A stretch of 64,000 nt of DNA from a virus, in the IMG/VR virus record IMGVR_UViG_3300048904_000313, positions 9,468 to 73,467 of that record. The stretch is one strand, 5' to 3'. A program made the translations under genes and the position numbers. This document shows, piece after piece, positions 12,235-41,723 of the stretch (the stretch's first letter is position 1; each line of letters starts with the position of its first letter). The notes beneath the pieces were generated by a model. That model was not told the origin of the DNA. It did no database searches and worked only from the letters and a program-made list of their open reading frames with translations.

Positions 12235-12238
12235 CCTG

Positions 12239-12267
12239 TGTACATTTGACGCTGGTACTGGTAACCT
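12239..12267 (+). promoter_or_regulatory. Sigma70/HrdB-type promoter
   Basis: TGTACA-N17(ending TGG)-TAACCT. Confidence 0.7.
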
Positions 12268-12308
12268 GGGTACCAGCAGGGAGGAACCGGAACAGGAAGA
12301 GGAAGACG

Positions 12309-12824
12309 ATGACCAACGCCGCGTACCAGAGCACCAGGACGACCGCTGCCGACATGAAGGTGGCGATCGCGTTTGAGAAGACGGTGCACATCCTCTACGG
12401 CGAGACCAAGGTCGACGGAGACGTCGCCACCGGCCTCGTCGAGTGGCGGGAGATCGAGCCGCACGAGGTCCGTCAGAGCAAGGACGGCAACCTCTACGTG
12501 GTTGCGATGTGCCGCCTCCGCGGCGAGCGTCGTCACTTCCGCCTGGACCGGATCAGCCACTACAACTCCGGTACACGCGGGTTCATCCTCCCCTGGCCCG
12601 AGAAGGCCGACCCGGAGGAGATCACCGACTGGTGGGGTCTCACCAGCCAGACCGGCACCACCGTGCTGCAGGTCGAGCTCAACACCGATGGCCAGCCCAA
12701 CCCCTACGCTCTGGTCCTGAAGAAGGCGCAGACGGAGTCGGGCAAGGTGCGGGCGGTGGTCAAGGCCGAGCGCGGCATCAGCATCCGACGGCTGCGTCGG
12801 AAGGACGTTCTCGCCTGGAGGTGA
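12309..12824 (+). CDS. WYL-domain protein
   Basis: I.Y......REIEPHEV......YVVAMCRLRGERRHFRLDRI matches the WYL consensus; no HTH seen. Confidence 0.8.
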   Translation: MTNAAYQSTRTTAADMKVAIAFEKTVHILYGETKVDGDVATGLVEWREIEPHEVRQSKDGNLYVVAMCRLRGERRHFRLDRISHYNSGTRGFILPWPEKADPEEITDWWGLTSQTGTTVLQVELNTDGQPNPYALVLKKAQTESGKVRAVVKAERGISIRRLRRKDVLAWR

Positions 12825-15028: not shown

Positions 15029-15994
15029 ATGGCACTCATTCTGCTTGAGGGTGTCGACGGCGGTGGCAAGTCCACGCTGGCCGACCGTATCGAGGAGACG
15101 TTCAAGTTCCTCACCGAGGACGACCCCAACCCGCCCCAGGTCGTCCGGATTCACAAGGGCAAGCCCACCCCCAACCTGGACGCGTTCCAGGAGTACGAGC
15201 TTCCCCTGGAGCGGTTCGACCTCCGCGACCTGATCCACTCAGCGCGAGACCTCGTCATCATGGACCGCTGGCACGCTGGCGAGATCCCCTACGGCACGAT
15301 CTACCGTGGCTCCAGCCGCCTGGACCAGGCCGGCCTCCTGCACGTGGAGCTCGTCCTCAGCGCGGTGGGCGCGGTGAAGGTGCTCGCTCAACCCGACGAG
15401 GTGGACCTCGTCAAGTTCCGTCTCAAGGCGCGGGGCGAGGACTTCCTGCAGCCTGAGCACGTGGACCGTGTCTGGCAGTGGTACGAGTCCCTGAAGAAGC
15501 TGTACGGCTACGTCCGCGCCAGTGACACCGCCCCGTCTGAGCTGATCCAGCTCGCCAGGGAGCGAGCCCTGGACTCTCATCGCACGGTGCCGCAGTCCTG
15601 GCCAGGGTACGTGGGCAGTCAGTTCCCGCGTCTTCTCCTGGTGGGAGACCAGCGGAACGACGGCCCCCGCGCTCGCCATGAGTTCGTCCGCGCCTTCACG
15701 CCGTGTCTCGGTGGCAGCTCCGCGGTCTACCTCCTCAACACGCTCAACCTGGCGGACATCCGTCGCGAGGTGGGCATCGTCAACGCTCACGAGCCGGGTG
15801 TGGATCTCACGCTGATCGACAAGATCGAGCCGCGGCCGGCCGTCGTGGCGCTTGGTCGCCTCGCGTCGAAGACGCTGACCGACGCCGGCGTGGAGCACGA
15901 GGCAGTGCCGCATCCTCAGTGGACGCGTCGCTTCCGCAACCAGAAGATGGGCTGGTATGCCCAGGAGATCAAGGAGGCCGCCGGATGGAAGTGA
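15029..15994 (+). CDS. dNMP (thymidylate-type) kinase fused to a uracil-DNA glycosylase-like domain
   Basis: N-terminal ILLEGVDGGGKSTLA and IMDRWH.GE..YG..YRG; C-terminal LLLVGDQRN, VVALGRLA, VPHPQW..RF. Confidence 0.75.
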   Translation: MALILLEGVDGGGKSTLADRIEETFKFLTEDDPNPPQVVRIHKGKPTPNLDAFQEYELPLERFDLRDLIHSARDLVIMDRWHAGEIPYGTIYRGSSRLDQAGLLHVELVLSAVGAVKVLAQPDEVDLVKFRLKARGEDFLQPEHVDRVWQWYESLKKLYGYVRASDTAPSELIQLARERALDSHRTVPQSWPGYVGSQFPRLLLVGDQRNDGPRARHEFVRAFTPCLGGSSAVYLLNTLNLADIRREVGIVNAHEPGVDLTLIDKIEPRPAVVALGRLASKTLTDAGVEHEAVPHPQWTRRFRNQKMGWYAQEIKEAAGWK

Positions 15995-16920
15995 TCGCCA
16001 AGACCGGCTCTGAGGCGTACGTGGAGCTGATGCAGGCTGTCCTCAACGAGGGTGAGCCGACGTCTCCACGTGGCCAGCTGACGTTTGAGCTGCTGAACGT
16101 CACCGTCCAGGTGGAGGACCTCGAGGAGGCGCACGTCCTCAACACGGCGAGGAAAGTCAACACCAAGATCCTCGCCACCGAGTACATGCACCTGCTCGGC
16201 GGCCTGAGCTCCCTTGAGCAGCTCGACCTCGCGTCCGGTGGGCGGTTCTCCCAGTTCGCGAACGGCGGCCGTCTCCTGGGCGCCTACGGCCCTCGAATCA
16301 GGCGTCAGCTGCCCAGGGTCGTTGAGCTTCTGAGCCGCGACCCCGACACCCGGCAGGCGGTCCTCTCCATCTGGACCGGCCGGGAGCACGAGGTCGACTC
16401 CAGGGACGTGCCCTGCACCCTGACCGTGCAGTTCCTCCTTCGCGACAACCAGCTTCACGTCCGCGTCTCCATGCGCTCTAATGATGTGGTGCTCGGCATT
16501 CCCTACGACTGGTGGATGTTCAGCCGGCTAGGCATGTCGGTGGCGTCGGCCCTGGGCGTGGAGACCGGCTCGTACACGCACACCGTTGGCTCCATGCACC
16601 TGTACGACCGCGACCTCGGCATCGCCAACGACGTGGAAGACATCGGCTTCCTCGCCAAGCCTCGCCTGGCGGTTCCCCCGGCTCTCACCTACGTCGGTGA
16701 CCGGGAGGACAAGGTCTTCCGAATGATCAAGCTGATGCAGGTGGCGGAGGACATCTGTCTCGACGACCCGTCGCACTGGGGCGCCGACTACCTCGGCATG
16801 GACTGGTACCACGGTCACGTGCCGCGGATCACCGACGTCAAGCAGTGTGTCAGCTGCCACTGCGTGGTCAAGACCGCTGAGATGTCGGAGCACCCACAGT
16901 TCTGCAAGGCCTGCAACTGA
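15985..16920 (+). CDS. Thymidylate-synthase-fold enzyme, dCMP hydroxymethylase-like (T4 gp42-like)
   Basis: DVPCTLTVQFLLRD...MRSNDVVLGIPYDWW; Asp (16507-16509) at the position that is Asn in dUMP-specific ThyA; HTVGSMHLY. Confidence 0.8.
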   Translation: MEVIAKTGSEAYVELMQAVLNEGEPTSPRGQLTFELLNVTVQVEDLEEAHVLNTARKVNTKILATEYMHLLGGLSSLEQLDLASGGRFSQFANGGRLLGAYGPRIRRQLPRVVELLSRDPDTRQAVLSIWTGREHEVDSRDVPCTLTVQFLLRDNQLHVRVSMRSNDVVLGIPYDWWMFSRLGMSVASALGVETGSYTHTVGSMHLYDRDLGIANDVEDIGFLAKPRLAVPPALTYVGDREDKVFRMIKLMQVAEDICLDDPSHWGADYLGMDWYHGHVPRITDVKQCVSCHCVVKTAEMSEHPQFCKACN

Positions 16921-17456
16921 TGACGTCGTGGCTGCAGCGAGAGCTGCTGCAACGCTATGACGGGAGGCAGATCTCGTGGGACGAGCTGTGGCTCAACGCC
17001 GCCTGCATGCTCGCCATGCGAAGTCGGTGTTCGCGCGACCGCGTTGGCGCCGTCATGGTGACCGACGACGATCGGGTCATCTCCGCCGGCTACAACGGCG
17101 CGCCGCCTACGTTCGCTGGTGACAAGAAGGGACCGTGTGCGGAGTGGTGTCCCCGCGCCATGCACACGCCTCTCGGCGAGCCTGGTAACCCCGGTTATCA
17201 GGACTGTCACGCCACGCACGCGGAGATGAACTGTCTCAAGCGAGCCCCCGCGGTCGAGGCCACGATGACCACGCGGCTGTACGTCAGTCGCATGCCATGC
17301 TATCCCTGCGCCAAGGAGATCGGCTCCACGTATGCGACGCACAACCTGCGTCAGCTCATCGTGCCGGTGAGCCATGAGGTCAACGTGCAGCACGGTGACG
17401 TCAGCCGGTCGGCGTCGTTCCTGGCTCAGTGTGGGATCAAGGTTCGCTTCGTCTAG
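16920..17456 (+). CDS. dCMP deaminase
   Basis: RSRC.R.RVGAV, SAGYNGAP, HAEMN, PCYPC. Confidence 0.9.
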   Translation: MTSWLQRELLQRYDGRQISWDELWLNAACMLAMRSRCSRDRVGAVMVTDDDRVISAGYNGAPPTFAGDKKGPCAEWCPRAMHTPLGEPGNPGYQDCHATHAEMNCLKRAPAVEATMTTRLYVSRMPCYPCAKEIGSTYATHNLRQLIVPVSHEVNVQHGDVSRSASFLAQCGIKVRFV

Positions 17457-17467
17457 CCAGGCTGACC

Positions 17468-17476
17468 TGGTATAGT
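17468..17476 (+). promoter_or_regulatory. Extended -10 element upstream of DNA polymerase
   Basis: TGGTATAGT in the intergenic gap; no clear -35. Confidence 0.4.
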
Positions 17477-17560
17477 TGACCCCAGACGGCAGCCCGTTGC
17501 GATTTCCGAGGTGGCGGCTGGGCTGCCGTCTAACTAGGAACGAGCGAGAGACGTGGTACG

Positions 17561-19339
17561 TTGACAGACTCCCCGCTTTCCAACGTCGAGCTGCACCTGG
17601 TGCAGAGCATCGACGACCTGATGGACATGAAGCGCTGGGCAGGCGAGCGCCGCGAGACCCCCATGGGAGCGGACACCGAGTCGGGTGACCTTTCGCCGTG
17701 GCACAGCAACCTTCGCACCATCCAGCTTGGCGACAAGCATCACGGCTGGTGCGTCCCGTGGGACCAGTGGGGCGGCGGTGCCCTCGAGATCCTCCAGAAC
17801 TACGAGGGCTCGTTCACGTGGCACAACCTCCCCCACGACGCCAAGTTCATGAAGGTCCACGCGGGCTACGACATCCCGTGGCACCGCACGGATGACACGC
17901 TCATCGGGGCGCGGATCCAGGACCCAGGGCGGCCCGCGGGACTGAAGCCGCTGGTCAGCAAGCTCGTCGACAAGACGGCATTGGCCGGCCAGAAGGCCCT
18001 CGATGACGGCATGAAGGCGCAGAAGTGGACGTGGGCCACGGTCCCGTTGAGCTTCGCGCCGTACTGGATCTACGCTGCGATGGACCCGGTACTCAACTGC
18101 CACCTCTGGGAGAAAATAATCCCGGACGTGCAAAGTCGGTTCGGCGCGGTCTACGACCTCGAGATGGCGATCGTCCGCATCGCTACCAAGATGATGCTCA
18201 AGGGCGCGCAGCTCGACCCCGTCTACATCGAGACGGAGCGGCAGAAGCTCCAGCAGTTCAGCACCGAGGCCAGGCTGTGGCTGAAGGTCACGTACGGCAT
18301 CACCAGTCCGTTGTCGGCCGGCCAGATCAGTCGCGCTCTCACACAGCTTGGCGTGGAGATCAGCGTCTTCACCGACGCCGGTGCGCCGAAGATGGACAAG
18401 GACACGCTGGAGTTCTACCAGAAGACCTCGTTCAACCCCGCCGTCCAGGAGCTCTGCCGCTACGTCCTTGCCGTCCGTCACGCGGACAAGCTGCGAGGCA
18501 CGTACCTCGACAACTTCATGTCCATGGCGGACTCCAACGGGATCATCCACGCCAGCATCAACACGCTGGCGGCCAGGACAAGTCGGATGTCCATGTCCGA
18601 CCCGAACTTCCAGAACCTGCCTCGCGACGACAAGATGATCCGTGGATCGGTCGTCCCACGGGAGGGCAACGTTCTCGTCACGTGTGACCTGGACCAGGTG
18701 GAGGCGCGCTTCGGCGCTCACTTCAGCGAGGACCCCGGTCTCGTGGAGGCCTTCAGCATCGCCGACAACGGCGGCACGGACTTCTTCTGCACCGTGGCCA
18801 GTGGCATCTACGCCGATGAGATCACGAACAAGAAGGACCCGCGTCGCCAGCCGACGAAGAACGTCTTCTATGGCTCGCTGTATGGAGCTGGCGCAAAGAA
18901 GATGGCGGAGACGGCCGGCATCCCGTTCGAGCAGATGGACCCGGTCAAGCGCGCGTTCGACTCGACCTACCCTGGTCTCAAGGCGGCGCTGGATCGCGTC
19001 TACCGCGAGGCGATGGAGCGGGAGAAGCCGTACATCGTCACCCCGTTCGGCCGTCACATCCCTCTGGACCGCGACCGCGCGTACACCCAGGGTCTCAACA
19101 GCCTCATCCAGGGGCATGCCGCGGAGTACTTCAAGGTCAGCCTGACCCGCATGGAAGCGGCGGACCTCGACCAGTTCCTCCTCATCCCGGTGCACGACGA
19201 GGTCGTGGCTGACGTGCCGGAGGACATGGCGGAAGAGGTGGCTCGCGCCATCGCGGAGTGCATGTCGGACGCGGACACCTATCGTGTCAAGATCAGCGCC
19301 GGCGCGGACATCCTCAAGGAGAGGTGGCAGAAGGTATGA
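17561..19339 (+). CDS. polA: Family A DNA polymerase (3'-5' exonuclease plus polymerase)
   Basis: Exo motifs ADTES, HNLPHD, YAAMDP; motif A CDLDQVEAR, motif B KNVFYGSLYG, motif C VHDEV. Confidence 0.95.
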   Translation: MTDSPLSNVELHLVQSIDDLMDMKRWAGERRETPMGADTESGDLSPWHSNLRTIQLGDKHHGWCVPWDQWGGGALEILQNYEGSFTWHNLPHDAKFMKVHAGYDIPWHRTDDTLIGARIQDPGRPAGLKPLVSKLVDKTALAGQKALDDGMKAQKWTWATVPLSFAPYWIYAAMDPVLNCHLWEKIIPDVQSRFGAVYDLEMAIVRIATKMMLKGAQLDPVYIETERQKLQQFSTEARLWLKVTYGITSPLSAGQISRALTQLGVEISVFTDAGAPKMDKDTLEFYQKTSFNPAVQELCRYVLAVRHADKLRGTYLDNFMSMADSNGIIHASINTLAARTSRMSMSDPNFQNLPRDDKMIRGSVVPREGNVLVTCDLDQVEARFGAHFSEDPGLVEAFSIADNGGTDFFCTVASGIYADEITNKKDPRRQPTKNVFYGSLYGAGAKKMAETAGIPFEQMDPVKRAFDSTYPGLKAALDRVYREAMEREKPYIVTPFGRHIPLDRDRAYTQGLNSLIQGHAAEYFKVSLTRMEAADLDQFLLIPVHDEVVADVPEDMAEEVARAIAECMSDADTYRVKISAGADILKERWQKV

Positions 19340-19833
19340 CCCGTCGCCTTGCCGCCGTCCCTGACCCACCGGACAAGCCCGGTGGCGACCCCAGCGTCGT
19401 GCTGTGGTTCGACCCCGGGCTCACCACGGGGTGGGCCTACCTGGAGATGGCCAGCTCGTTCAACAGTGGCCAGGCGCCGTTCGAGTCCATCGGTGAGCTG
19501 CTCACCGGCTGGGCGGAGATCCTCGGTCCCAACCTCTGGGTGGGGTGGGAGCTGTACAACGTCACCCAGGGTGGCGGCAAGGCGGGCACGCCCAAGTACA
19601 GCCTGGAGACCATCGGCATGCTGAAGTGGATCTGTCACGCTCACGACGTGACGGTCCTGAAGGCCATGCCGTCCGCGTCGCGGAAGCTCGGCGACGAGAT
19701 CAAGCTGAAGAAGCTGGACTGGCGGAAGCGTGGACAGGTCCACGCAAACGACGCCGCCATGCACCTCTTGGCGTGGCATCTTCGAGAGAAGAAGCTGCCC
19801 CCTCACCTGCTCTCGCGGGTGCTCGCCGACTAG
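19336..19833 (+). CDS. RuvC-like Holliday junction resolvase
   Basis: VLWFDPGLTTGWA...WE...HANDAAMH. Confidence 0.75.
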   Translation: MTRRLAAVPDPPDKPGGDPSVVLWFDPGLTTGWAYLEMASSFNSGQAPFESIGELLTGWAEILGPNLWVGWELYNVTQGGGKAGTPKYSLETIGMLKWICHAHDVTVLKAMPSASRKLGDEIKLKKLDWRKRGQVHANDAAMHLLAWHLREKKLPPHLLSRVLAD

Positions 19834-19863
19834 TGGTCTCCACTGCGGAGACAAGATCAACTG

Positions 19864-19892
19864 TTTACATCCGAGCTTACGCCTGGTAGACT
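19864..19892 (+). promoter_or_regulatory. Sigma70/HrdB-type promoter
   Basis: TTTACA-N17(ending TGG)-TAGACT. Confidence 0.75.
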
Positions 19893-19923
19893 GGTTACAG
19901 CAGATACGGAAGGGACAACGGAA

Positions 19924-20112
19924 GTGAACGTGATCTCCGACGCCCTCGTAGCCAAGCGCAAGGGTTGTCCCTCCTGTGGAGCTCGACCCAACGTCGCCTG
20001 CAGTGAGATCGGACGGCAGTACGTGCCCCTCGCCGAGACCCATCTGGCTCGCCTCGCTCTCGTCAGTGAGGCGTATCAGGGAGAGGACCCACGCGTCAAT
20101 GCCGAAAGCTGA
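19924..20112 (+). CDS. Small Zn-finger protein
   Basis: CPSCGA.P...C...H..R. Confidence 0.65.
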   Translation: MNVISDALVAKRKGCPSCGARPNVACSEIGRQYVPLAETHLARLALVSEAYQGEDPRVNAES

Positions 20113-22012
20113 CCTCTTCACGCACGAGAACAGCAGCGTCATCAGCATCGCTACCACCTACCAGGACCGTCATCTCATGACGGAGCTGCCGGGTGGCCGC
20201 TTCAACCGTCAGCTCCAGGGCTGGCTGGCCCCGCTCAGCTGGGCCACCTGCGTGACCCTGCGCGGCCTCTTCGGGGACCGCCTTGAGATCGGGGAGGACC
20301 TTCAGGCGTGGGCGTGGGAGACCCGCAACTCGCGGATCGAGCCCGCCTACCGCATCCGGAACCTGCTCGAGCTGCCACCTGACATGCCGTTCCCCGAGCT
20401 CGACGAGGTCGAGGAGGGCCGGCCACTCAAGCTCTTTCCGTACCAGCGCGTCGATGTGAAGTTCCTGCTCCTCAACGAGCGGGCGCTCCTCGCCAACGAG
20501 CCGGGCCTCGGCAAGACGGGCGTGCTGATCCGCTTCCTCCAGGTGCTCAAGCACCTCGGTCGGGAGCCGTTCCCCGCGGTGGTGATCTGCCCGAACAGCC
20601 TCAAGTTCGCGGTGTGGGAGGGAGAGTTCGCGGCGTGGGCACCGGAGATCAACGTCCAGGTGGTGGACGGCTCCGCCGGCAAGCGACGGAAGCAGTTGGC
20701 CAACCAGGCCGACGTGTACGTGATCAACTGGGACAGCGTCCGTCTTCACTCGCGGATGGCGGCCTATGGCTCCATCAACCTGTCAGACAACGACAGGCTG
20801 CCGAAGGAGCTCAACGAGCTCAACCCGCGCGTCGTGCTCATGGACGAGGCGCATCGCCTGAAGTCTCCGCAGACGGCGTGGACCAGGGCGGCGTGGGCAG
20901 TGGCTCACCAGGCTCGCTACCGAGTGGCGGCGACCGGCACTCCGGTGACCGATCACGTGGGTGACTGGTGGTCTCTCGGCCACGCGCTCGAGCCAACGTG
21001 GCTGCCGGCCAAGACGAAGTTCATGGACCGGTACGCTCAGGTGTCACTGAACTTCTTCGGTGGCGCGGAAGTGGTGGGGATCAACCCCAACACGAAGGAC
21101 GAGCTCTTCTCCATCATCGATCCTCTCACCCGTCGCGTTCCCAAGAAGCTCGCGCTGCCACAGCTGCCACCCAAGCTGCCGCCGCAGATCCGGCACACCC
21201 CGATGGCGACGAAGCAGCAGAAGGCCTACGACCAGATGCGAGAGCAGATGCTCGCCATGCTGGACGGCGGACTTCTCGTGGCAGGTGACGACCGCGTCAA
21301 GTTCCTCAGGCTGATGCAGTTTGCCGCCGCCTCCGCGGAGCTCGTGACCGTCACCAAGCGAGTGCCGGTGAGGACGGAGCGGTTCGTGGAGGACCTCGAT
21401 CCGCGTCTCACGCTCGACGACCTTTACGACGACGATGATGACTTTGTCCACCCACTGGAGGGCAAGACCGTCACCGACGTGACGTACGAGGAACGAGAGG
21501 TGACTCAGGTAAGGCTGACGAGTCCCTCCGCCAAGGTGGACGACCTCGTGGACCTGCTGGAGGAGATGGGAGAGGCACCCCTCGTGGTAGCCGCGGTCTC
21601 CCGTCAGCTCATCGAACTGGCCGGCAAGAAGCTGGAGCAGCTGAAGATCCCCCACGGCTACATCACGGGGGCTCAGACTCCCGCGGAACGCCGAGTGGCG
21701 ATGAACTCCTTCCAGGCTGGCAACATCCGAGTGATCCTTCTCACTCTCGGCGCCGGGGCGGAGGGCATCACCCTCACCCGCGCCGACACCATGTTGTTCA
21801 TGCAGGAGGACTTCAGCGAGGTCACGAACCAGCAGGCTCAGGATCGAGTCTACCGCATCGGCTCGGAGATCCACGCCAGCATCCGCATCATCAAGCAGAT
21901 CACGCCGGGAAGCGTGGAGGAGCGGAAGCTCGAGCTGCTGGAGGGCAAGCGCATTCGCATGGAGGAGATCCTGCGGGACGAGGACTCGATCCGATACCTC
22001 CTGGGAGGGTGA
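20099..22012 (+). CDS. SNF2-family (SF2) helicase
   Basis: LANEPGLGKT, DEAH, ATGTP, GAEGITLTRA, QAQDRVYRIG. Confidence 0.9.
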   Translation: MPKADLFTHENSSVISIATTYQDRHLMTELPGGRFNRQLQGWLAPLSWATCVTLRGLFGDRLEIGEDLQAWAWETRNSRIEPAYRIRNLLELPPDMPFPELDEVEEGRPLKLFPYQRVDVKFLLLNERALLANEPGLGKTGVLIRFLQVLKHLGREPFPAVVICPNSLKFAVWEGEFAAWAPEINVQVVDGSAGKRRKQLANQADVYVINWDSVRLHSRMAAYGSINLSDNDRLPKELNELNPRVVLMDEAHRLKSPQTAWTRAAWAVAHQARYRVAATGTPVTDHVGDWWSLGHALEPTWLPAKTKFMDRYAQVSLNFFGGAEVVGINPNTKDELFSIIDPLTRRVPKKLALPQLPPKLPPQIRHTPMATKQQKAYDQMREQMLAMLDGGLLVAGDDRVKFLRLMQFAAASAELVTVTKRVPVRTERFVEDLDPRLTLDDLYDDDDDFVHPLEGKTVTDVTYEEREVTQVRLTSPSAKVDDLVDLLEEMGEAPLVVAAVSRQLIELAGKKLEQLKIPHGYITGAQTPAERRVAMNSFQAGNIRVILLTLGAGAEGITLTRADTMLFMQEDFSEVTNQQAQDRVYRIGSEIHASIRIIKQITPGSVEERKLELLEGKRIRMEEILRDEDSIRYLLGG

Positions 22013-22984
22013 GTGGACGACGTACTGAAGCTCAGCAACAGCACCATCACCGCCTACAAACGGTGCGCCAGGCACTGGTACCTGGCGTACCACCTCGGCT
22101 ACGGCAAGCGGCCAGACCGTGACTCCACGACTACCGTCGCCACCCTCGGCACCAGGGTGCACTGCGCCCTGGAGGCCTACTACGGCTACGACATCGACCC
22201 TCTCGCCGCCCTGCGGGTGATCTACTACCTCGCCGTGAAGGAACGTCCCTTCGACGAGGCGGAGCTGGACAAGCAGCACCGCTACGCCAAGGCGATGGTG
22301 GAAGGCTTCCTGCAGTGGTCGGAAGAGGAGGGGATCGACTCGGCGCTGGAGGTCATCGAGACCGAGCACCTCGTCAAGCGGCCACTCCTTCTCGACGACG
22401 GCGCCGTCGTCACCCTGATGGCGAAGCTCGACCAGAAGGTGCGGCGCAAGACCGACAACGCGGTGCTCTTCCGTGACTGGAAGACCGTGGGCAGCCTCAC
22501 CAAGTCTCACCTGCTCATCGTCGACGAGCAGATGAGGTTCTACTCCCTGCTCGAGGCCCTGAGTGCCAGCGAGACGGGCGAACGAGCGGACGGGGGACTG
22601 TACACCATGCTCCTCCGCTCGATGCGCACACCTAAAGCCAACGGCCCCTTCTTCCGGGAGGTCGAGGTCAGGTTCAACCAGCACGACCACGACTCCATGC
22701 TGAAGCGAACCAAGGCCGTGGTGACCGACATCCACGTCACCGAGCAGAAGCTTCGCGCCGGCGCCGATCACCGTGCGGTGGCCTACCCGAGCCCTGACCC
22801 GAACGGGTACTGCGGCTGGTGGTGCCCGTTCACCCTCATCTGTCCGATGATGGATGACGGCAGCCGGTGGGAGGACGCCTTGCAGGCGAACTTCGTCAAG
22901 CGTGACCCGTACGGGTACTATGGTACGGGTCTGATCGACCAGGTGAGGGCTGCCCTCGCCCCTGGAAAGACCGAAGGGAAGTGA
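22013..22984 (+). CDS. PD-(D/E)XK (Cas4/RecB-like) exonuclease
   Basis: LSNS.I..YKRC.RHWY, E...KLD....DWKT, C-terminal CGWWCPF...CP. Confidence 0.85.
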   Translation: MDDVLKLSNSTITAYKRCARHWYLAYHLGYGKRPDRDSTTTVATLGTRVHCALEAYYGYDIDPLAALRVIYYLAVKERPFDEAELDKQHRYAKAMVEGFLQWSEEEGIDSALEVIETEHLVKRPLLLDDGAVVTLMAKLDQKVRRKTDNAVLFRDWKTVGSLTKSHLLIVDEQMRFYSLLEALSASETGERADGGLYTMLLRSMRTPKANGPFFREVEVRFNQHDHDSMLKRTKAVVTDIHVTEQKLRAGADHRAVAYPSPDPNGYCGWWCPFTLICPMMDDGSRWEDALQANFVKRDPYGYYGTGLIDQVRAALAPGKTEGK

Positions 22985-22988
22985 CAGA

Positions 22989-23714
22989 TTGACCGACCTC
23001 GGGATGTCCCTGCTCGTGCATGGACCCTCCAAATCTGGCAAGTCCACCCTGGGTGACACCACCCCCGGACCGCGTCTCGTTCTCGACGCGGAGATGGGTT
23101 CCAGGTTCACCCCGTCGAAGAAGGTCGTCTGGGACCCCACCCAGTACGCGCCACCGGAGCCCAGCGAAGACTGGGACACCGCGATCGTCTACGTCCGCGA
23201 CTACAAGTCCGTGGCACGGGCCTACGAGTGGCTGAACAGCGGCAAGCACCCGTTCAACTCCGTGGTCCTGGACTCCATCTCGGAGATCCAGCAGCGTGCC
23301 ATCGACGCTCTCGTCGGCGCGGACATCATGAAGACCCAAGACTGGGGTACGATCCTCAGGCAGATCTCGGACCTCGTCCGCAAGTTCCGAGACCTGACCA
23401 CCAACCCCATCAAGCCTCTCGACGCGGTCGTCCTCATCGCGATGACCAAGCAGCGAGACGATGGCAGCTGGTATCCGTACGTCCAGGGCTCCCTGGCTAC
23501 GGTGCTGCCGTACCACGTCGACGTCTGTGCCTACCTCCAGAACGTGACCCTGGAGGACGGGATCTCCACCGCTCGTCGCCTGTTCGTCGGCCCGATCAAT
23601 GGGTACGTGACGGGTGAGCGAGTGGCGGGACGCCTCGGCACCTACCTCGACAACGCGAACGTCACGGACATGCTTGGCATGGTACGTGGCGATCTCGAGC
23701 CCAACAGCAACTGA
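22989..23714 (+). CDS. Phage AAA-domain nucleotide-binding protein (AAA_24/Sak4-like)
   Basis: HGPSKSGKST Walker A; VVLDSISE. Confidence 0.8.
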   Translation: MTDLGMSLLVHGPSKSGKSTLGDTTPGPRLVLDAEMGSRFTPSKKVVWDPTQYAPPEPSEDWDTAIVYVRDYKSVARAYEWLNSGKHPFNSVVLDSISEIQQRAIDALVGADIMKTQDWGTILRQISDLVRKFRDLTTNPIKPLDAVVLIAMTKQRDDGSWYPYVQGSLATVLPYHVDVCAYLQNVTLEDGISTARRLFVGPINGYVTGERVAGRLGTYLDNANVTDMLGMVRGDLEPNSN

Positions 23715-23734
23715 GAACGGAGCGGATTCGACAC

Positions 23735-24412
23735 ATGGCCAGCTTCTCTTGGAATGACCTTCAGCAGGCTGCTGACGACGCCGGGTTCGGCGTCATCCCC
23801 GCCGGTGACTACGAGTGCTCGGTGAAGACCGCGGAGCACAAGAAGACGGGCACCGGCAAGGACAAGATCGCCGTTCGCTTCGTCGTCACCACCGGCCCGT
23901 CTGAGGGCAAGGCGGTCTTCAACGACTTCGTGATCAGCCCGGACAACGGCACCGCGCTCGGGTTCTTCTTCCGCCACATGAAGGCGCTGGGTCTCGGCCC
24001 GGACTACTTCGCCTCCAACCCCGACCTCGGCAAGGTCGCGGGTGACCTGGTCGGCCGCAGCTGTGTGGTCACCGTCGGCATCCGTCAGTGGAACGAGGAG
24101 GACCGCAACGAGGTCAAGGGCATCAAGGCCTCGGCTGGCGCGGCCGCTCCCATGACGGCAGCCAGCGCGGGCCCACAGCCGATGGCGGCTCAGCCGGCCA
24201 CCCGGCCGCAGCCGATGGCTCACCCGCAGCCCACCGCTCAGCCTCAGCCGACTGCCCAGCCGCAGCCGGTCTCCACGGAGAAGAAGGCGAAGAAGGAGGA
24301 GCCGAAGGACGAGGCGCCTGAGGCTCCCACCGCGGAGCCGCAGGACGCTCCGCCGGCGGCGGAGGCAGAGGCCGCCACCGACGCACCGGCGAAGCCCAAG
24401 CTGCCGTTCTGA
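23735..24412 (+). CDS. DUF669-like single-stranded DNA-binding protein
   Basis: FGVIPAGDYEC.V..AE.K.T.TGK..I...F.V; Pro/Gln/Ala-rich tail ending in LPF. Confidence 0.75.
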   Translation: MASFSWNDLQQAADDAGFGVIPAGDYECSVKTAEHKKTGTGKDKIAVRFVVTTGPSEGKAVFNDFVISPDNGTALGFFFRHMKALGLGPDYFASNPDLGKVAGDLVGRSCVVTVGIRQWNEEDRNEVKGIKASAGAAAPMTAASAGPQPMAAQPATRPQPMAHPQPTAQPQPTAQPQPVSTEKKAKKEEPKDEAPEAPTAEPQDAPPAAEAEAATDAPAKPKLPF

Positions 24413-25158
24413 TGGACGAGGCTCAGCCGATCCGACGCGGCGCTGCCAGGGAGGAGCGCCGCTTCGATCAGACGCAGCTCCGCGCCACGAAGTACGGGGA
24501 GCGGGTTCACCGCGACTATGCCGCTCACTTCTTCAAGTGGGGGTTCGCCACCAGGCACATCGGTCCCGAGGACCGCGTCCTGGAGGTCGGCTGTGGCAGT
24601 GAGCTTCCCCTCGTCAACGTGTTGCGGATGGGTGGCAGGTACAACCCCGCCAGCTACGTGGGTGCTGACCTCAACAAGGTCAGCGTCTACCGGCCGGAGT
24701 GGGCGACGATCCACGATCACTTCAACTTCGTGGACCGGTACCTGGAGCTCGCCACTGAGGACGCGTACACCGTGGGCGTGTGCATCGAGGCCATCGAGCA
24801 CATGAACGCGGAGGACGGCCTCAAGCTGCTGGAGGGGTTCCGCACCCTCCTGACGGACGACGGCAAGCTCATCCTCTCCACGCCCGTGTTCAACGGGCGG
24901 GCGGCGAAGAACCACATCCACGAGTACACGATCCCCGAGCTTCAGGCGGCGATCGAGCACACGGGCTGGCAGGTCGAGGCGCGCTACGGCACCTTCGCCT
25001 CGTACCGGGACATCGTCAAGGTGGCGACACCAGAGCACCGCCAGGTATTGGACGGCATCCGCCAGCTGTACAGCGAGGAGGTCACGGCCTGCTTCCTCGC
25101 CCCGCTGTACCCCGACCACAGTCGGAACAACGTCTGGGTCCTAACACCCAGGGGTTGA
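24412..25158 (+). CDS. Class I SAM-dependent methyltransferase
   Basis: RVLEVGCG, YVGADL, CIEAIEHM, LILSTP. Confidence 0.85.
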   Translation: MDEAQPIRRGAAREERRFDQTQLRATKYGERVHRDYAAHFFKWGFATRHIGPEDRVLEVGCGSELPLVNVLRMGGRYNPASYVGADLNKVSVYRPEWATIHDHFNFVDRYLELATEDAYTVGVCIEAIEHMNAEDGLKLLEGFRTLLTDDGKLILSTPVFNGRAAKNHIHEYTIPELQAAIEHTGWQVEARYGTFASYRDIVKVATPEHRQVLDGIRQLYSEEVTACFLAPLYPDHSRNNVWVLTPRG

Positions 25159-25183
25159 CAGGGTGTCGCCACCGTGCTAGAGT
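25155..25183 (+). promoter_or_regulatory. Strong sigma70/HrdB promoter
   Basis: TTGACA-N17-TAGAGT, upstream of the dCTPase-GT-Glf-Dcm operon. Confidence 0.8.
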
Positions 25184-25245
25184 CTGAGCCGGTGGCGACG
25201 CCCTCACTGGAAGAGAAGCGTGAAGCGACCAAGAGGAGACCTGTA

Positions 25246-25722
25246 GTGGAGTTCAACCAGTGGATCGCCGAGCAGCGCGCGTATCAGCGCGAGACGTTCG
25301 GCGTCGACTACACCCTGATGGCCAACGACGTGGACGCCCTCACGGCCTACGTCACGATGAACCTGAACGCGGCCTTCCTCGAGCTGGCGGAGACCCAGCA
25401 GGAGGTGCCGTGGAAGCCGTGGGCCGAGACGGAGGACCGCGCCAAGGTGTGGTCGACCGGCCGTGACAAGGTCGTCGGTGAGATCGTGGACGTGCTGATG
25501 TTCGTCGGCAACGTCCTCACCGCGGTCGACTGCTCCGACTCGGAGCTGGCCACCCGCTACGAGGCGAAGATGGCGGTCAACCGCCAGCGCCAGGCGGCGG
25601 GCTACGACAACACCAACAAGTGCGACGGCTGTGGCCGGGCGTTCGACGACCACGGCGTCAAGCTCGCCGGCGTGATGAACGGCAAGCCGCACTGCGAGAA
25701 GTGCTGGGAGGCGTTCGCGTGA
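25246..25722 (+). CDS. All-alpha dimeric dUTPase/dCTPase (T4 gp56-like) with C-terminal Zn ribbon
   Basis: ELAE...VPWKPW, GEIVDVLMFVGN, Y..K...N..RQ..GY; CDGC...CEKC; GTG at 25246 after AGGAGA. Confidence 0.8.
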   Translation: MEFNQWIAEQRAYQRETFGVDYTLMANDVDALTAYVTMNLNAAFLELAETQQEVPWKPWAETEDRAKVWSTGRDKVVGEIVDVLMFVGNVLTAVDCSDSELATRYEAKMAVNRQRQAAGYDNTNKCDGCGRAFDDHGVKLAGVMNGKPHCEKCWEAFA

Positions 25723-26738
25723 AGCTCCTCATGACGGGTACCACGAAGCAGCAGGTCGGGGGCGGCACCGCCCTCGGCTACGAGCCGGTGGCCGACCTCT
25801 TCGCTAAGGGCCTTCGCCTGGCCGGCCACGAGGTCGAGCACCGCAAGACCACCATCGGCGAGGACCTCGCCCCCTACGACGCGGTGCTGGTCGGTCTCGT
25901 GCCGTTCTTCTCCATCGCGTCCAACCAGCTCTACCACGCGCTCGACGTCATCGAGCGCGCGGAGAAGAGCGGTCACCCGCTGCTCTTCTTCGTGGACGAC
26001 TGGGCGTTCCCCCGCCTGGTGGCCAACCTCAACACTCACATCCGTCACCCCTGGCAGCTGACGAAGGAGTTCTTCAGCGGCAGGGCCAGCTACGACTGGG
26101 CGTGCTCCCGCAAGGAAGAGCTCCAGGTTCTCGTGGAGCGGATGCGCTATCAGCCGTGGGCACCCACCATCGTGCCGGCGTTCACCTGGGGTGACCATCA
26201 CAAGCTGACGGGGGAGGTGGAGATGATGACGCAGCCTCACTACGTCGACGTCTCCTCTCTCGCCATGGAGTACCCGCTCACCTTCCCGCCAGAGCGGGAG
26301 CGACGCTGGGTGCTCGGCACGATCAGCGACCAGCGGAAGTGGATGGACTCCCTCGGCCTCGGCTGGGAGGTCAATCACCTCGGGACGCGGGCCTCAAAGG
26401 CCCCCGAGAAGATGCCTGAGAGCCAGCTCGTGCAGCTCTACGCGGAGTCCTGGGGAGTTCTCAGCCCGCCGTACAAGCGGATCCTCGGGACAGGCTGGTG
26501 GCGCAACCGCGCCGTCTACGCCGCGAGGGCCGGCGCGATCCTGCTCAGCGACCCCGGTGAGATGCCGCAGCTGGGTGAGGCGTACCAGCTCAAGCCCGCC
26601 GAGGTCGAGGCCATGACGGACACCGAGCTCTGCAGCCTGGCGGCGGCACAGCGGCAGGCTCTCTTCAGCTGTCAGCCGTCCACCGGCCAGGTAGCGGCTC
26701 AGCTCGACGCGATCGTGCAGGGAGTGGTCAACAAGTGA
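25719..26738 (+). CDS. GT-B glycosyltransferase, DNA beta-glucosyltransferase-like
   Basis: Segments align by eye to T4 BGT: DLAPYDAVLV~DVNDYDRLIV, LLFFVDD~IYYLFTD, KMPESQLVQLYAES~KIPMNMVSEKNSQA, RNRAVYAARAGAILLSD~TLRVWETMASDAVMLID; similar length. Confidence 0.65.
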   Translation: MKLLMTGTTKQQVGGGTALGYEPVADLFAKGLRLAGHEVEHRKTTIGEDLAPYDAVLVGLVPFFSIASNQLYHALDVIERAEKSGHPLLFFVDDWAFPRLVANLNTHIRHPWQLTKEFFSGRASYDWACSRKEELQVLVERMRYQPWAPTIVPAFTWGDHHKLTGEVEMMTQPHYVDVSSLAMEYPLTFPPERERRWVLGTISDQRKWMDSLGLGWEVNHLGTRASKAPEKMPESQLVQLYAESWGVLSPPYKRILGTGWWRNRAVYAARAGAILLSDPGEMPQLGEAYQLKPAEVEAMTDTELCSLAAAQRQALFSCQPSTGQVAAQLDAIVQGVVNK

Positions 26739-27817
26739 AGTGCGTGGTGGTTGGCGCCGGCTTGGCCGGCGCCACCGCCGCTCGCAAGGTGAGCCTTCAC
26801 CCCGACTGGGAGGTCGAGGTCTACGAGGCAGCACCTGAGGTGGGCGGCAACCTGAGAGCCAGCTCCATTGCTGGCGTCCTGTACGAGCCCTTCGGGCCAC
26901 ACATCTTCCACACCAACAACCTCGTTGCCTGGGACTGGATCACCAGCTACGCCAAGCTGGTGCCGTATCAGCACACGGTCAAGAGTCAACTGGCCAACGG
27001 CCGCATCCTCTCCTGGCCTCCCCAGGTGGAGGAGCTGAAGACGCTGCCGGAGTGGTCGAGGATCGCCGCGGAGCTCGACGCGCGGCCGGCTTCTCCCTCC
27101 GCGGCGAACTTCGAGAGCTACGCCATCGAGGTCATGGGCGCCACGCTCTACGCCTGGTTCTGCGAGGAGTACACGCGCAAGCAGTGGGGGACCGACCCTC
27201 ACCTGCTGAGCTCCAGGTTCGCACCGAAGCGGATCGACCTTCGCACGGACGGCGATCGGCGACTCTTCCGCGATCAGGACCAGGGTTGGGTGGCGGGTGG
27301 CTTCCAGAACCTCGTCCACGCGCTGCTGCACAACATCCCGGTCCACACTGGACGAGAGCTCACTCTCTCCACGCTGCCGGCGGCGGACGCCTACGTCATT
27401 ACCGCGCCCCTGGACGACTTCCTCGGTGAGGAGCCCCTTCCCTGGCGCGGCGTCCGCAGTGAGGCCACCTACTACCCCGACCGCGTGGGTCGTTCGCTCC
27501 CCGCACCGGTGCTCAACCGGCCGGGCGCGGAGGTCCCGTGGACTCGGGAGGTGGAGACCAGGCAGATGGCGGGCCAGGACACACTGGGCACCGTCATCGT
27601 GAGGGAGTACCCTGGGGCCAGCACCAGGTACTACCCGGTGGACGACGTCGACGGGGAGAACCGTGCCCGGTGGCGGGCGCTGCGAGACGAGCTCAAGATC
27701 CACCTGCCCAACGCCCACCTGGCCGGTCGCCTGGCCAACTACGTCTACATCGACATGGACCAGGCCATCGTCCAGGCTCTCAACGCCGCAGGACGGATCA
27801 CGAGGGGAACAGAGTGA
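26735..27817 (+). CDS. glf: UDP-galactopyranose mutase homologue
   Basis: FAD motif VVGAGLAG, GGN, GPHIFHT, YTRKQWG, REYP, YYP, GRLANY.YIDMDQAI. Confidence 0.9.
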   Translation: MKCVVVGAGLAGATAARKVSLHPDWEVEVYEAAPEVGGNLRASSIAGVLYEPFGPHIFHTNNLVAWDWITSYAKLVPYQHTVKSQLANGRILSWPPQVEELKTLPEWSRIAAELDARPASPSAANFESYAIEVMGATLYAWFCEEYTRKQWGTDPHLLSSRFAPKRIDLRTDGDRRLFRDQDQGWVAGGFQNLVHALLHNIPVHTGRELTLSTLPAADAYVITAPLDDFLGEEPLPWRGVRSEATYYPDRVGRSLPAPVLNRPGAEVPWTREVETRQMAGQDTLGTVIVREYPGASTRYYPVDDVDGENRARWRALRDELKIHLPNAHLAGRLANYVYIDMDQAIVQALNAAGRITRGTE

Positions 27818-29076
27818 CCTACACGTTCATCGACAACCAGGGCTTCGCCGGCGGCTTCGCCTGTGGCGCCACCCAGGCGGGCTTCCACCTGGTCGGCAAG
27901 CTGGAGAAGCCGGGTGGCTTCGGCGTCCCGCTGATGGAGGCCAACCGCGTCTTCCTCGGCGACGACTGGGAGGCACAGGTCGGCGATCCCAGCAGCTGGA
28001 AGGCCGTCAAGGCCGACGTCATCGTTGCCACGCCACCCTGCAGCGGCTTCTCCTCCATGACAGCCGGCATCGCTGGCATGCACGGCATCGACGCGCCGAT
28101 CAACCAGTGCATGAAGGACCTGATCGGCTACGCCATCAAGGTCAAGCCCACGGTCGTCTGCATGGAGTCGGTCGGCCAGGCGTACACCAAGGGTCTCGAC
28201 CTGATGCGGCGGCTGCGTCAGACGCTCAGCGACGAGACGGGGCTCACGTATCACGCCACGCACGTGATGCAGAACAACCTCTCCACGGGTGGCTGCACCA
28301 ACCGCCGGCGGTACTTCCTCGTGTTGAGCCAGGTGCCCTTCGGCGTGGAACGCTACGACCTGAAGCGAGTCGCCACCGTGGGTGACGCGCTCGAGGACCT
28401 GCGCAACCTCGACATCACCTGGGACCCTCAGGCGTACGAGGACGAGCCGACCTGGTGGTCCGCGGAGCGTCGCTCCAAGACCGGCATGGTGGACGGCCAC
28501 ATGGACCCGCCCGACGGCCCGTACAAGCGTCGCATCTACGACATGGCGCAGAGCCCCGACGCCGTGGAGTGGAAGGCGGGCGAGGGCGACACGGACATGC
28601 TCCGTCGCTGGTACGAGACGCACGGCTCGCTCCCCGACTCCTGGGACTACGTCTCCGCTGGCAAGGAGAAGAGCCGTACTGAACAGATGGTGGAGCGCGG
28701 CTTCAAGATGGGCGGCTTCTCCAAGCCGAAGCACTGGCCGTGGGACGTCCCAGGCCGCGTGATCAACGGCTCCGGCCCGATCCAGGTGTGGCACCCCGAC
28801 GGCCGCTTCTCCACGCACCGGGAGATCGCTCGCCTGATGGGCTTCCCCGACGACTGGGTGGTCGGCACTGCGAAGGACACCCGCGCCCTCACCTCCTACT
28901 GGGGCAAGGGCACGTCCGTCTCGCCGGCGAAGTGGCTGATGGACTGGGTGCGCAACAGCCTGGACGGCAACCCTGGTTCCTACGTAGGCGAGGAACTGGC
29001 GGCAGGTGACCGCTTCATCACGGTCGCCCCGGACTGGAAGCCGGTCTGGGAGGCACAGACCGCCACGGCAGCCTGA
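27814..29076 (+). CDS. Divergent DNA cytosine-C5 methyltransferase (Dcm-like)
   Basis: Motif I-like QGFAGGF, motif IV PPCSGFS, motif VI variant MESV, motif VIII RRRYF, motif IX-X THREIARLMGFPDDW...GKG. Confidence 0.75.
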   Translation: MTYTFIDNQGFAGGFACGATQAGFHLVGKLEKPGGFGVPLMEANRVFLGDDWEAQVGDPSSWKAVKADVIVATPPCSGFSSMTAGIAGMHGIDAPINQCMKDLIGYAIKVKPTVVCMESVGQAYTKGLDLMRRLRQTLSDETGLTYHATHVMQNNLSTGGCTNRRRYFLVLSQVPFGVERYDLKRVATVGDALEDLRNLDITWDPQAYEDEPTWWSAERRSKTGMVDGHMDPPDGPYKRRIYDMAQSPDAVEWKAGEGDTDMLRRWYETHGSLPDSWDYVSAGKEKSRTEQMVERGFKMGGFSKPKHWPWDVPGRVINGSGPIQVWHPDGRFSTHREIARLMGFPDDWVVGTAKDTRALTSYWGKGTSVSPAKWLMDWVRNSLDGNPGSYVGEELAAGDRFITVAPDWKPVWEAQTATAA

Positions 29077-31149: not shown

Positions 31150-31327
31150 CTCGCAAGTAACGGGCGGAGTAAGGAAGCCCAGGGCCACGAGAGTCAGATG
31201 GGAATCCTTTTCCTTAGTCCACGCCCGTGGAGGTCCCGGCAGTCGCTTGTGGTGAGGGTCTCGTCCCGCCACGTCTCTTAGCCGGAGGCCAGCGAGACGA
31301 GACCTCTCAACTCTCGCGACGAGGGTG

Positions 31328-31356
31328 TGTACAGCAGCGTCAATCTCTGGTATTGT
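31328..31356 (+). promoter_or_regulatory. Sigma70/HrdB-type promoter
   Basis: TGTACA-N17(ending TGG)-TATTGT. Confidence 0.7.
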
Positions 31357-31401
31357 TTCTCTCGTCAGCAGGAACCAGGAAGTTCAGGAACGGAGAGCAT
31401 C

Positions 31402-35292: not shown

Positions 35293-35300
35293 CTGATTCG

Positions 35301-36029: not shown

Positions 36030-36082
36030 ATGAACTCCCACAGGTCTGGGTGATCGGTCTTTAGAGCGCATCCTCGCTGTTT

Positions 36083-38820: not shown

Positions 38821-38831
38821 TCGACGTCACC

Positions 38832-39545: not shown

Positions 39546-39558
39546 TTCGCCACCCCTC

Positions 39559-40269: not shown

Positions 40270-40278
40270 CGTGTCTCC

Positions 40279-41714: not shown

Positions 41715-41723
41715 GCCCCAACC

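Follow-up and report, generated by a model that had tools for sequence, protein, structure and literature searches.

A candidate phage pathway coupling T4-like synthesis of 5-hydroxymethylcytosine to a furanose-sugar donor

Bacteriophage T4, the classical system, makes DNA which contains glucosylated 5-hydroxymethylcytosine (hmC) by means of gp42, gp56, gp1, Cd and BGT, and the sugar donor of BGT is UDP-glucose. Here we consider a stretch of 64,000 nucleotides (the window), bases 9468–73467 of the virus record IMGVR_UViG_3300048904_000313 of IMG/VR (107,550 bp, complete by CheckV), which comes from an uncultured phage. Its replication and nucleotide-metabolism genes include a ThyA-fold enzyme with the active-site signature of gp42, a GT-B glycosyltransferase (GT) and a homologue of Glf, the mutase which converts UDP-galactopyranose (UDP-Galp) to UDP-galactofuranose (UDP-Galf). 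We hold it moderately probable that these genes encode a two-stage cytosine hypermodification of the T4 type, in which hmC is made before replication and a furanose is added to it afterwards. That the sugar is galactofuranose is uncertain.

In work published in 2026, arabinofuranosyl-5-hydroxycytosine (5hoC) was demonstrated in the DNA of phages RB69 and DLP3; Rhizobium phage RL38J1 and the Pootjesviridae have galactosyl-glucosyl-5hoC, and a step catalyzed by a phage UDP-galactopyranose mutase (UGM), which gives UDP-Galf, was proposed for RL38J1 (PMC13326640). An earlier note on this DNA, made from its letters, had put forward galactofuranosylated DNA as a candidate new modification, a claim to novelty which these results have dated. 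The 5hoC pathways resemble the one considered here in that a ThyA homologue acts before replication and glycosylation follows on the DNA. The 5hoC enzymes differ by a D169N substitution and produce 5-hydroxy-dCMP with a flavin, whereas the window enzyme keeps D169, and the sugar would be attached to a hydroxymethyl and not to a ring hydroxyl. The GTs of the RB69 type are unrelated by sequence to that of the window, and the Glf of RL38J1 is a close bacterial-type UGM, whereas that of the window is divergent.

The Enterococcus phages VPE25 and VFW are a second point of comparison. The cytosines of VPE25, which encodes a homologue of BGT, are resistant to conversion by bisulfite; galactofuranosyl transfer on its DNA was already the object of speculation in 2016 (PMC4999554). 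VPE25 has an enzyme with the gp42 signature, as the window does; its GT is a true BGT homologue and it has no Glf. No paper that links Glf or galactofuranose to hmC chemistry was found in the literature beyond the 5hoC and VPE25 work.

AXL3, a cultured Stenotrophomonas phage, shares with the window a fusion of a kinase to a uracil-DNA glycosylase (UDG) domain, a gp42-signature enzyme, a deaminase, an NTPase, an S-adenosylmethionine (SAM) methyltransferase (39% identity) and ThyX. It differs in being a 47.5-kb siphovirus with a gammaproteobacterial host, in having neither GT nor Glf and no Dcm-like enzyme in the module, and in its PRA-PH-type NTPase. Its DNA proved resistant to every one of the 35 restriction enzymes tested that have G or C in their sites, and was cut by two enzymes only, both with AT-only sites (PMC7504290).

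Among sequenced phages, the module has its closest relatives in DSL-LC01 (OQ999401, a metagenome-assembled Actinomycetia phage) and in the Gordonia phages of the genus Godonkavirus and their allies (GodonK, Phendrix, Forza and GMA2), with 25–51% protein identity. In DSL-LC01 the genes follow the order kinase fusion, ThyA-fold enzyme, deaminase, PolA, helicase, nuclease, RecA-like protein, GT, Glf, second GT, MazG and Dcm-like enzyme. In Phendrix the kinase, deaminase and PolA genes are accompanied by one for a gp42-signature enzyme and by three paralogues of the GT; Glf and the UDG domain are absent from the Gordonia phages. The authors of the DSL-LC01 study regarded its Glf/UGM as a cell-wall auxiliary metabolic gene (PMC10611076). 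In the literature no DNA analysis was found for DSL-LC01 or for these Gordonia phages.

The eight genes which the earlier note had named in the window (dNMP kinase, dCMP hydroxymethylase, dCMP deaminase, SAM methyltransferase, NTPase, GT, Glf and Dcm-like enzyme) are all present on the + strand, with the starts and the folds or families given there. They are interleaved with genes for PolA, an SNF2 helicase, a PD-(D/E)XK nuclease, an AAA_24 protein and a DUF669 protein. Compared with the T-even phages, the window shows the same logic and the same enzyme fold at each step: the active-site signature of the ThyA-fold enzyme is identical, and a gp56-family NTPase, a dNMP kinase, a dCMP deaminase and a GT-B transferase are shared in type. 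It differs from T4 in that its GT has no detectable sequence homology to BGT, its kinase is Tmk-like and fused to a UDG domain and not gp1-like, and dTMP comes from ThyX and not from Td. The replicase is PolA, the host background is high-GC, and a mutase and a C5-methyltransferase-fold enzyme stand in one operon.

The best match of the ThyA-fold enzyme in the PDB is the CMP hydroxymethylase MilA (E 1e-25). Its sequence was aligned with those of E. coli ThyA, T4 gp42, RB69 gp48 (a 5-hydroxy-dCMP synthase) and the SP10 dUMP hydroxymethylase, and the diagnostic positions were read by published rules: those for L143, D169 and N177 are from PMC13326640, and those for N177 and for Ser167/Arg126 (2'-deoxyribose versus ribose) from PMC5175136. 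The window enzyme has R126, Asp in place of L143, C146, S167, D169 and Asp in place of N177, and all six are the residues of T4 gp42. The catalytic cysteine (C146 of E. coli) is aligned and invariant. The N177 position falls in IPYD in the window and FRND in T4, and is Asn in E. coli ThyA and in the SP10 enzyme. At position 143 the window and T4 both have Asp, which gives access to water and therefore a hydroxymethyl and not a methyl product. The deoxyribose markers are RSND and DPDTRQ, compared to RAND and DSKR in MilA (Ala and Lys, ribose). D169 is retained (in RSND), whereas the RB69 control has Asn.

The controls sorted as expected (N177 in E. coli ThyA and SP10, D169N in RB69). By this signature the base is predicted to be cytosine, the sugar deoxyribose and the product a hydroxymethyl, and the 5hoC type would be excluded. 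A 5-hydroxy-dCMP synthase of the type of RB69 gp48, DLP3 gp80 and RL38J1 gp216 was rejected on the ground that D169 is kept and not replaced by Asn. The genome encodes ThyX (genome positions 96391–97149, outside the window), so that the ThyA-fold enzyme is not needed for dTMP; the signature and ThyX thus support the gp42-like hydroxymethylase of the earlier note, and the dTMP role which that note had named as its refutation is disfavoured. No TET or JBP homologue was found in the genome. The hmC would therefore arise before replication, and the post-replicative route, by a methyltransferase and TET, was rejected for the same reason.

We judge it very improbable that the base is something other than hmC, the ThyA-fold enzyme making dTMP, 5-methyl-dCMP, 5-hydroxy-dCMP or 5hm-dUMP (directly or through the action of the deaminase on hm-dCMP). 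The gene is annotated as thymidylate synthase in all the relatives, the dCMP deaminase gene overlaps it, and the pocket of the UDG-fold domain keeps the Asn, Phe and His typical of uracil recognition. Yet N177D excludes dUMP, L143D favours a hydroxymethyl over a methyl product, D169 and the correctly sorted controls speak against 5hoC, ThyX supplies dTMP, and the DNA of AXL3 is protected at sites which contain G or C and not at AT-only sites. The deaminase would rather feed dUMP to the phage ThyX, as Cd does for Td in T4. Unlike T4 gp42 and E. coli ThyA, the hydroxymethylase has a C-terminal extension of about 90 residues (window ~16790–16920), of which the final CxxC...CxxC has the look of a zinc ribbon.

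The kinase gene encodes a 321-residue protein whose AlphaFold model (pLDDT 93.6) shows two domains. The first (residues ~1–186) matches YorR and Tmk with Z of 12–14. The second (~186–321) matches the UDG of Thermotoga maritima (1L9G) with Z 11.6, an rmsd of 2.7 over 125 residues and 22% identity, and its pocket residues F223, N252 and H295-P296-Q297 are kept across 33 homologues. The dNMP kinase announced by the earlier note is thus present as a Tmk-like domain, and its UDG-fold partner had been missed. The same fusion is found in AXL3 (gp29) and in DSL-LC01, and not in gp182 of Phendrix. Base-modified phages in which an active UDG domain is attached to a replication enzyme provide a precedent (PMC13697223). 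The Tmk-like domain is a candidate hm-dCMP kinase; the likeliest role of the UDG-fold domain is the removal of U or of 5-hydroxymethyluracil (hmU). This domain lacks the Fe-S cysteines, and its motif A is altered (VGDQRN).

The NTPase belongs to the same Pfam family as T4 gp56 (PF08761, 26.6 bits, compared to 25.4 bits for gp56) and gives local BLASTP alignments with the gp56 proteins of T4 and RB69 at E 1e-5. The description of this protein as gp56-like agrees with these data, and we regard it as a candidate dCTPase/dUTPase.

The GT has no sequence match in Pfam, in NCBIfam or in the PDB (E<=1). Its sole family match is phrog_14998, of unknown function, and none of its 65 homologues is named. 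Modelled together with its homologues by AlphaFold (pLDDT 95.6), it retrieves T4 BGT at ranks 1–6 in a Foldseek search of the PDB (E 1e-8 to 3e-7). VIA-align superposes it on BGT with Z 20.0 and an rmsd of 3.5 over 299 of 339 residues; the next families are SenB (Z 18.1) and other GT-B enzymes including T4 AGT (Z 16–17). An invariant DDW motif (D93, D94) follows strand 4, in the context FFVDDWAFP, which resembles YLFTD(100)IRLPF around the catalytic Asp100 of BGT, with the expected offset of about +6; the resemblance is one of sequence context, and the motif may hold the equivalent of Asp100.

A pattern scan of 185,579 prokaryote species genomes, limited in sensitivity, found no member of the GT family, and a fold search of BFVD returned only unnamed viral members of this same family. 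The family is therefore read as phage-only, within the sensitivity of the scan. RB69p052, which we take to be a candidate arabinosyltransferase from its place in the RB69 cluster, showed no similarity to the GT family in a profile comparison. When all the module proteins were compared with the modification region of RB69 by tblastn, only gp48 and gp56 matched. The structural model makes the GT a candidate hmC glycosyltransferase acting on DNA.

The Glf homologue matches PF03275 with 85.4 bits (cut-off 26.3) and has an N-terminal FAD-binding domain (PF13450). Its alignment with the solved UGM structures 3HDQ, 2BI7 and 1V0J is full-length (E 1e-36 to 1e-32, about 30% identity). We take the UDP-sugar contacts of the Klebsiella pneumoniae UGM to be Y155, W160, R174, Y185, R280, Y314, R343 and Y349; as counted in the alignment, seven of the eight are retained. 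The protein thus appears to be a divergent pyranose-furanose mutase and a candidate maker of the furanose donor, the exact sugar being less certain.

The GT and Glf genes lie in an operon of four genes (NTPase, GT, Glf homologue and Dcm-like enzyme) which is preceded by a putative promoter. The genes are joined by 4-bp GTGA overlaps, which suggests translational coupling, and the Glf homologue overlaps both of its neighbours in this way. Upstream, the open reading frame (ORF) of the kinase-UDG protein and the hydroxymethylase gene overlap by 10 bp, and the hydroxymethylase and deaminase genes by an ATGA. No further sugar-nucleotide or GT gene was found by Pfam in the rest of the genome (ORFs of at least 100 residues), so that the pyranose precursor must be derived from the host.

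A search of IMG/VR with the single GT protein found nothing; a tighter alignment of GTs used as the query retrieved four IMG/VR loci and seven metagenome loci. The arrangement is not due to chance, since phage DSL-LC01 and more than 10 metagenomic contigs have the same cassette (loci are labelled here in the form L010). A Glf homologue adjoins the GT in 12 of the 15 loci that could be evaluated, often with overlapping codons and in unrelated phage lineages. The gp42 signature is present in every ThyA-fold gene which stands beside a GT of this family or shares a genome with one, as checked in DSL-LC01, L010, L012, L013, L021, L025, Aeromonas phage 25 and Gordonia phage Phendrix. The co-occurrence of the GT and the gp42 signature thus spans actinophage-like, Gordonia and T4-like lineages. 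These counts bear on the joint occurrence of ThyA-fold, GT and Glf genes, for which the earlier note had called for a search. PolA is likewise syntenic with the PolA of DSL-LC01, Phendrix, L010, L012 and L025.

In the T4-like contig L013, one block contains the gp42-signature enzyme, a deaminase, an FkbM-type methyltransferase, the GT, Glf and a C5-methyltransferase, and ThyX is found further along. Aeromonas phage 25 (NC_008208; L014 5791-7972) has two adjacent genes annotated as "hypothetical, not conserved in 44RR", of which PHG25p228nc is a Glf homologue (PF03275, E 5e-54) and PHG25p227nc a member of the GT family. Phage 25 encodes both Td and a separate gp42-signature enzyme. It has been listed among the phages with gene 42 and without a glucosyltransferase (PMC2993671). 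The comparison extends to about 18 other T4-like Aeromonas phages; phage 25 differs from the window by its T4-type replisome, by Td, and by the absence of a Dcm-like gene nearby.

Some of the contigs carry additional genes around the cassette. In L008 Glf and the NTPase are separated by a GIY-YIG endonuclease gene (L008:12122-12778), and in L011 a LAGLIDADG insertion, probably an intein, interrupts the PD-(D/E)XK nuclease (L011:4445-6406). A 475-residue NDP-sugar epimerase/dehydratase (L008:2005-3432) and a small HIT-family protein (L008:13839-14189 and L011:13903-14256) are encoded near the GT, Glf and deaminase genes. These epimerase/dehydratase and HIT genes hint that in some lineages the sugar nucleotide may be modified further.

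From the folds, the active-site signatures, the operon structure and the co-occurrences we infer which substrates the enzymes use, that DNA is the acceptor, what sugar is added and in which ring form, and how far C is replaced, as follows. The gp56-family NTPase would lower dCTP and dUTP and yield dCMP, which the ThyA-fold enzyme would hydroxymethylate to 5-hm-dCMP. The Tmk-like domain would then form hm-dCDP and the host NDP kinase hm-dCTP, and the phage PolA is presumed to incorporate it, while the dCMP deaminase and ThyX would sustain the supply of dTTP. The Glf homologue would contract a host UDP-pyranose, most simply UDP-Galp, to the furanose, which the BGT-fold GT would move onto the hydroxymethyl group of hmC in DNA, probably by an inverting mechanism like that of BGT, with D93 or D94 as the Asp base. 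The product would shield the DNA from restriction and from other DNA-targeting defences. The Dcm-like enzyme and the UDG-fold domain would be part of the system, and the SAM methyltransferase an optional addition to the hmC module. The pathway proposed by the earlier note, T4-like synthesis of hmC before replication and then glycosylation from a Glf-made donor, is consistent with the signature, the presence of ThyX, the BGT fold and the adjacency of GT and Glf.

Several points weigh against this two-stage furanosylation. No DNA chemistry was found in the literature for any holder of this GT family, the phage of the window included. The margin of BGT over generic GT-B folds is only about two Z units in the comparison of models, and hhalign gives the GT family a probability of 1.7% against T4 BGT, which means no detectable sequence homology. 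The GT also has a pI of 6.1 (family median 6.2), compared to 9.05 for BGT; this is weak evidence which does not discriminate, since the Dcm-like DNA enzyme is equally acidic. Judging from the model, the kinship of the GT with BGT lies at the level of the fold only, so that the enzyme may be BGT-like in function at best and is not a demonstrable member of the BGT family. The "BGT-like" label of the earlier note accordingly holds for the fold and not for the sequence.

The acidity of the GT, its lack of sequence homology to BGT and the generic character of GT-B folds also fit a reading in which the GT and Glf do not act on DNA: their role would be to remodel the galactofuran of the host cell wall or to attach sugars to proteins of the virion or the host, and the hmC would be bare or otherwise modified. 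The cell-wall interpretation of the DSL-LC01 UGM by its authors points the same way. This seems quite unlikely to us. The pair stands within the replication and nucleotide module, in translational coupling with a DNA methyltransferase-fold enzyme and a gp56-family NTPase. In actinophage-like, Gordonia and T4-like lineages alike the GT family is accompanied by gp42-signature enzymes, no cellular members of it were detected in the prokaryote scan, and BGT is the top structural match in both aligners.

The identity of the sugar is open to further objections. The Glf homologue scores 135.8 bits against the NCBIfam equivalog TIGR00031, for which the cut-off is 303.75, and the equivalent of Y185 of the K. 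pneumoniae enzyme is Leu; the sugar could therefore be other than galactose. In three related loci (L010, L012 and L021) the GT is found without Glf. The UGM assignment of the earlier note is thus retained at the level of the Glf family, and galactofuranose is not established.

The three loci without Glf, together with the Gordonia phages, which also have the GT alone, would suit an hmC that bears an ordinary pyranose from UDP-glucose or UDP-Galp. Glf would then have a separate task, either draining host UDP-Galf in the reverse direction, which would stall the cell wall, or serving a second, undetected transferase. BGT itself uses UDP-glucose, and in DSL-LC01 a second GT paralogue flanks Glf. 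The adjacency of GT and Glf, often with overlapping codons, in 12 of 15 loci from unrelated lineages makes this explanation improbable. Moreover, Gordonia belongs to the Mycobacteriales, which make UDP-Galf themselves (the control genome of Corynebacterium glutamicum scores for GLF), and the loss of Glf from Gordonia phages is therefore expected.

The Dcm-like enzyme raises a difficulty of another kind. It matches PF00145 with 57.4 bits (cut-off 22) and keeps the motifs TPPCSGFS, MESV and NRRRYF (PC, E(S)V and RxR); P75, C76, E118 and R164 are invariant across seven members of its family. It scores below the NCBIfam dcm cut-off (24, compared to 100.65) and has no match among PDB sequences, and its nearest Atlas clusters are viral Dcm families. 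Dcm-like proteins with 50–59% identity are found in L008, L010, L011, L012, L020, L021, L025 and L026, always beside the GT. Of the 14 loci whose length allows a judgement, 13 have the gene, whose conservation is the highest in the module and exceeds that of the GT. A C5 methyltransferase cannot act on a base that is substituted at C5, and an intact enzyme of this fold is hard to reconcile with the complete replacement of C by hmC. The family given by the earlier note is thus confirmed by PF00145 and the motifs, and the role of the enzyme is paradoxical under full replacement. Most likely it deals with C that has stayed unmodified.

The specificity of the NTPase, dCTP or dUTP only, is likewise a weak point. 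If the NTPase were a dUTPase only, dCTP would persist and the DNA would be a mosaic of C and hmC (glycosylated or not), in which the Dcm-like enzyme methylates the remaining C of its target motif; the virion DNA would then bear 5mC as well as glycosyl-hmC. This partial replacement, which would modify the two-stage reading and not displace it, is possible, though on balance doubtful. The complete set of catalytic motifs of the Dcm-like enzyme, its conservation above the GT, its need for a C5-unsubstituted base and the naming of PF08761 after dimeric dUTPases all argue for it. However, T4 gp56, a true dCTPase, scores equally in PF08761; AXL3, which has a PRA-PH NTPase and no Dcm annotated in the module, resists all the enzymes with G or C in their sites; and in Aeromonas phage 25 the GT and Glf have no Dcm-like gene in their vicinity. 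Among the variants of the two-stage reading, this mosaic is the main one.

In L008 (15341-17302) and L011 (14742-16898) the Dcm-like enzyme is fused to a second, C-terminal methyltransferase, which is FkbM/Methyltransf_21-like or FtsJ-like. In the T4-like contig L013 the FkbM-type methyltransferase has a gene of its own, placed between those for the deaminase and the GT. A second SAM methyltransferase thus recurs in hmC modules in varied guises.

The SAM methyltransferase of the window has only weak matches, to MitM and UbiG. Its best homologue is gp31 of AXL3 (39% identity), a phage without GT or Glf. The gene is found in the window, in L023 and in L025 only, and is absent from the close relative L024 and from the other loci. 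This distribution shows it to be accessory: it tracks the hmC module and not the sugar. Methylation of the sugar by this enzyme, which the earlier note had put forward as a possible further step, was therefore rejected as the default.

Besides Glf and the probable hmC base, the system unites a kinase-UDG fusion, a Dcm-like enzyme and a GT family that is new. These elements might also be viewed as one composite system, with the Dcm-like enzyme as a second writer on the C which escapes hmC, the UDG domain as an active glycosylase for U or hmU, and the GT as a member of a new family of furanosyl-DNA transferases. Such a combination of hypermodification and proofreading has no described counterpart, and we put it forward as a tentative and rather unlikely extension. 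The group added by the Dcm-like enzyme could then possibly be other than a methyl, by analogy with the phage C5-carboxymethyltransferase CmoX.

Table 1. Genes and other features of the block in window coordinates, with the matches that support each assignment.
Feature	Position	Strand	Basis
Tmk-like dNMP kinase with UDG family-4-like domain	15029-15994	+	phrog_761 thymidylate kinase E 2e-12; folds
ThyA-fold enzyme, gp42 active-site signature	15985-16920	+	PF00303 E 1e-25
dCMP deaminase	16920-17456	+	PF00383 E 5e-13; phrog_174 E 1e-32
Family A DNA polymerase (PolA) with 3'-5' exonuclease domain	17561-19339	+	PF00476 E 2e-56; PF01612
SNF2 helicase	19976-22012		
PD-(D/E)XK nuclease	22013-22984		
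AAA_24 protein	22989-23714		
DUF669 protein	23735-24412		
Class I SAM methyltransferase, small-molecule type	24412-25158	+	Methyltransf_23 E 6e-10
Sigma-70-like promoter consensus TTGACA-N17-TAGAGT (putative)	25155-25183	+	read from sequence
All-alpha NTP pyrophosphohydrolase (dUTPase_2/MazG-like)	25246-25722	+	PF08761; phrog_18650 dUTPase E 5e-21
GT-B glycosyltransferase (GT), 339 aa	25719-26738	+	fold; phrog_14998 (unknown function)
Divergent Glf/UGM homologue	26735-27817	+	PF03275 E 6e-24 and FAD Rossmann domain
C5-cytosine DNA methyltransferase-fold (Dcm-like) enzyme	27814-29076	+	PF00145 E 2e-15

The block of Table 1 belongs to a replication and nucleotide-metabolism module formed by the + strand genes from about 8.1 to 34 kb. 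The GC content is about 65%, and identical DNA recurs in contigs assembled from several metagenome runs from root and soil. No match to the block was found by Megablast among 50,697 phage records. WhiB is missing from the genome, and a search with one head-module protein (56320–58134, likely a head protein) yielded no close phage relative. The term "actinophage" used in the earlier note, which follows from the relatives only, was for these reasons not adopted as fact.

Flanking the module are genes for a WYL-domain protein (12147–12824), an HU-like DNA-binding protein (8148–8597), a DUF932 protein (31327–32373) and a Prim-Pol primase-polymerase (367–1545). The lysis region (34022–36167, − strand) has genes for a papain-like peptidase and for a GH25 muramidase that carries a PG_binding_1 domain; no LysB-type esterase was seen there. 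It is followed (36508–43757, − strand) by a 770-residue Kelch-repeat protein and a tail protein with a pectate-lyase-like beta-helix, a pair which is also present in contig L010. Further along (61079–63874, − strand), one ORF combines a portal protein (PF04860) with a C-terminal NUDIX domain, and a separate stand-alone NUDIX gene lies outside the window at genome positions 103623–104147. Also outside the window, a 598-residue protein with TROVE (Ro60-like) and VWA domains (genome 92415–94211, − strand; L036:415-2211) is encoded near a Macro-domain protein (genome 99073–99606) and an HAD_SAK_2 protein (genome 84607–85218).

If the proposed pathway is correct, a furanose on 5-hydroxymethylcytosine would be a new sugar chemistry among the DNA hypermodifications of phages, and it would give a function to the phage-only GT-B family phrog_14998 and to the phage Glf family phrog_9677. 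It would also answer a question from 2010, namely how hmC is decorated in the T4-like Aeromonas phages which have no glucosyltransferase homologue (PMC2993671). The cultured Gordonia phages and Stenotrophomonas phage AXL3 would be predicted to carry hmC-based DNA. Such modifications set the sensitivity of phages to restriction, CRISPR and type IV systems, affect the sequencing and cloning of their DNA, and supply enzymes for the labelling of hmC.

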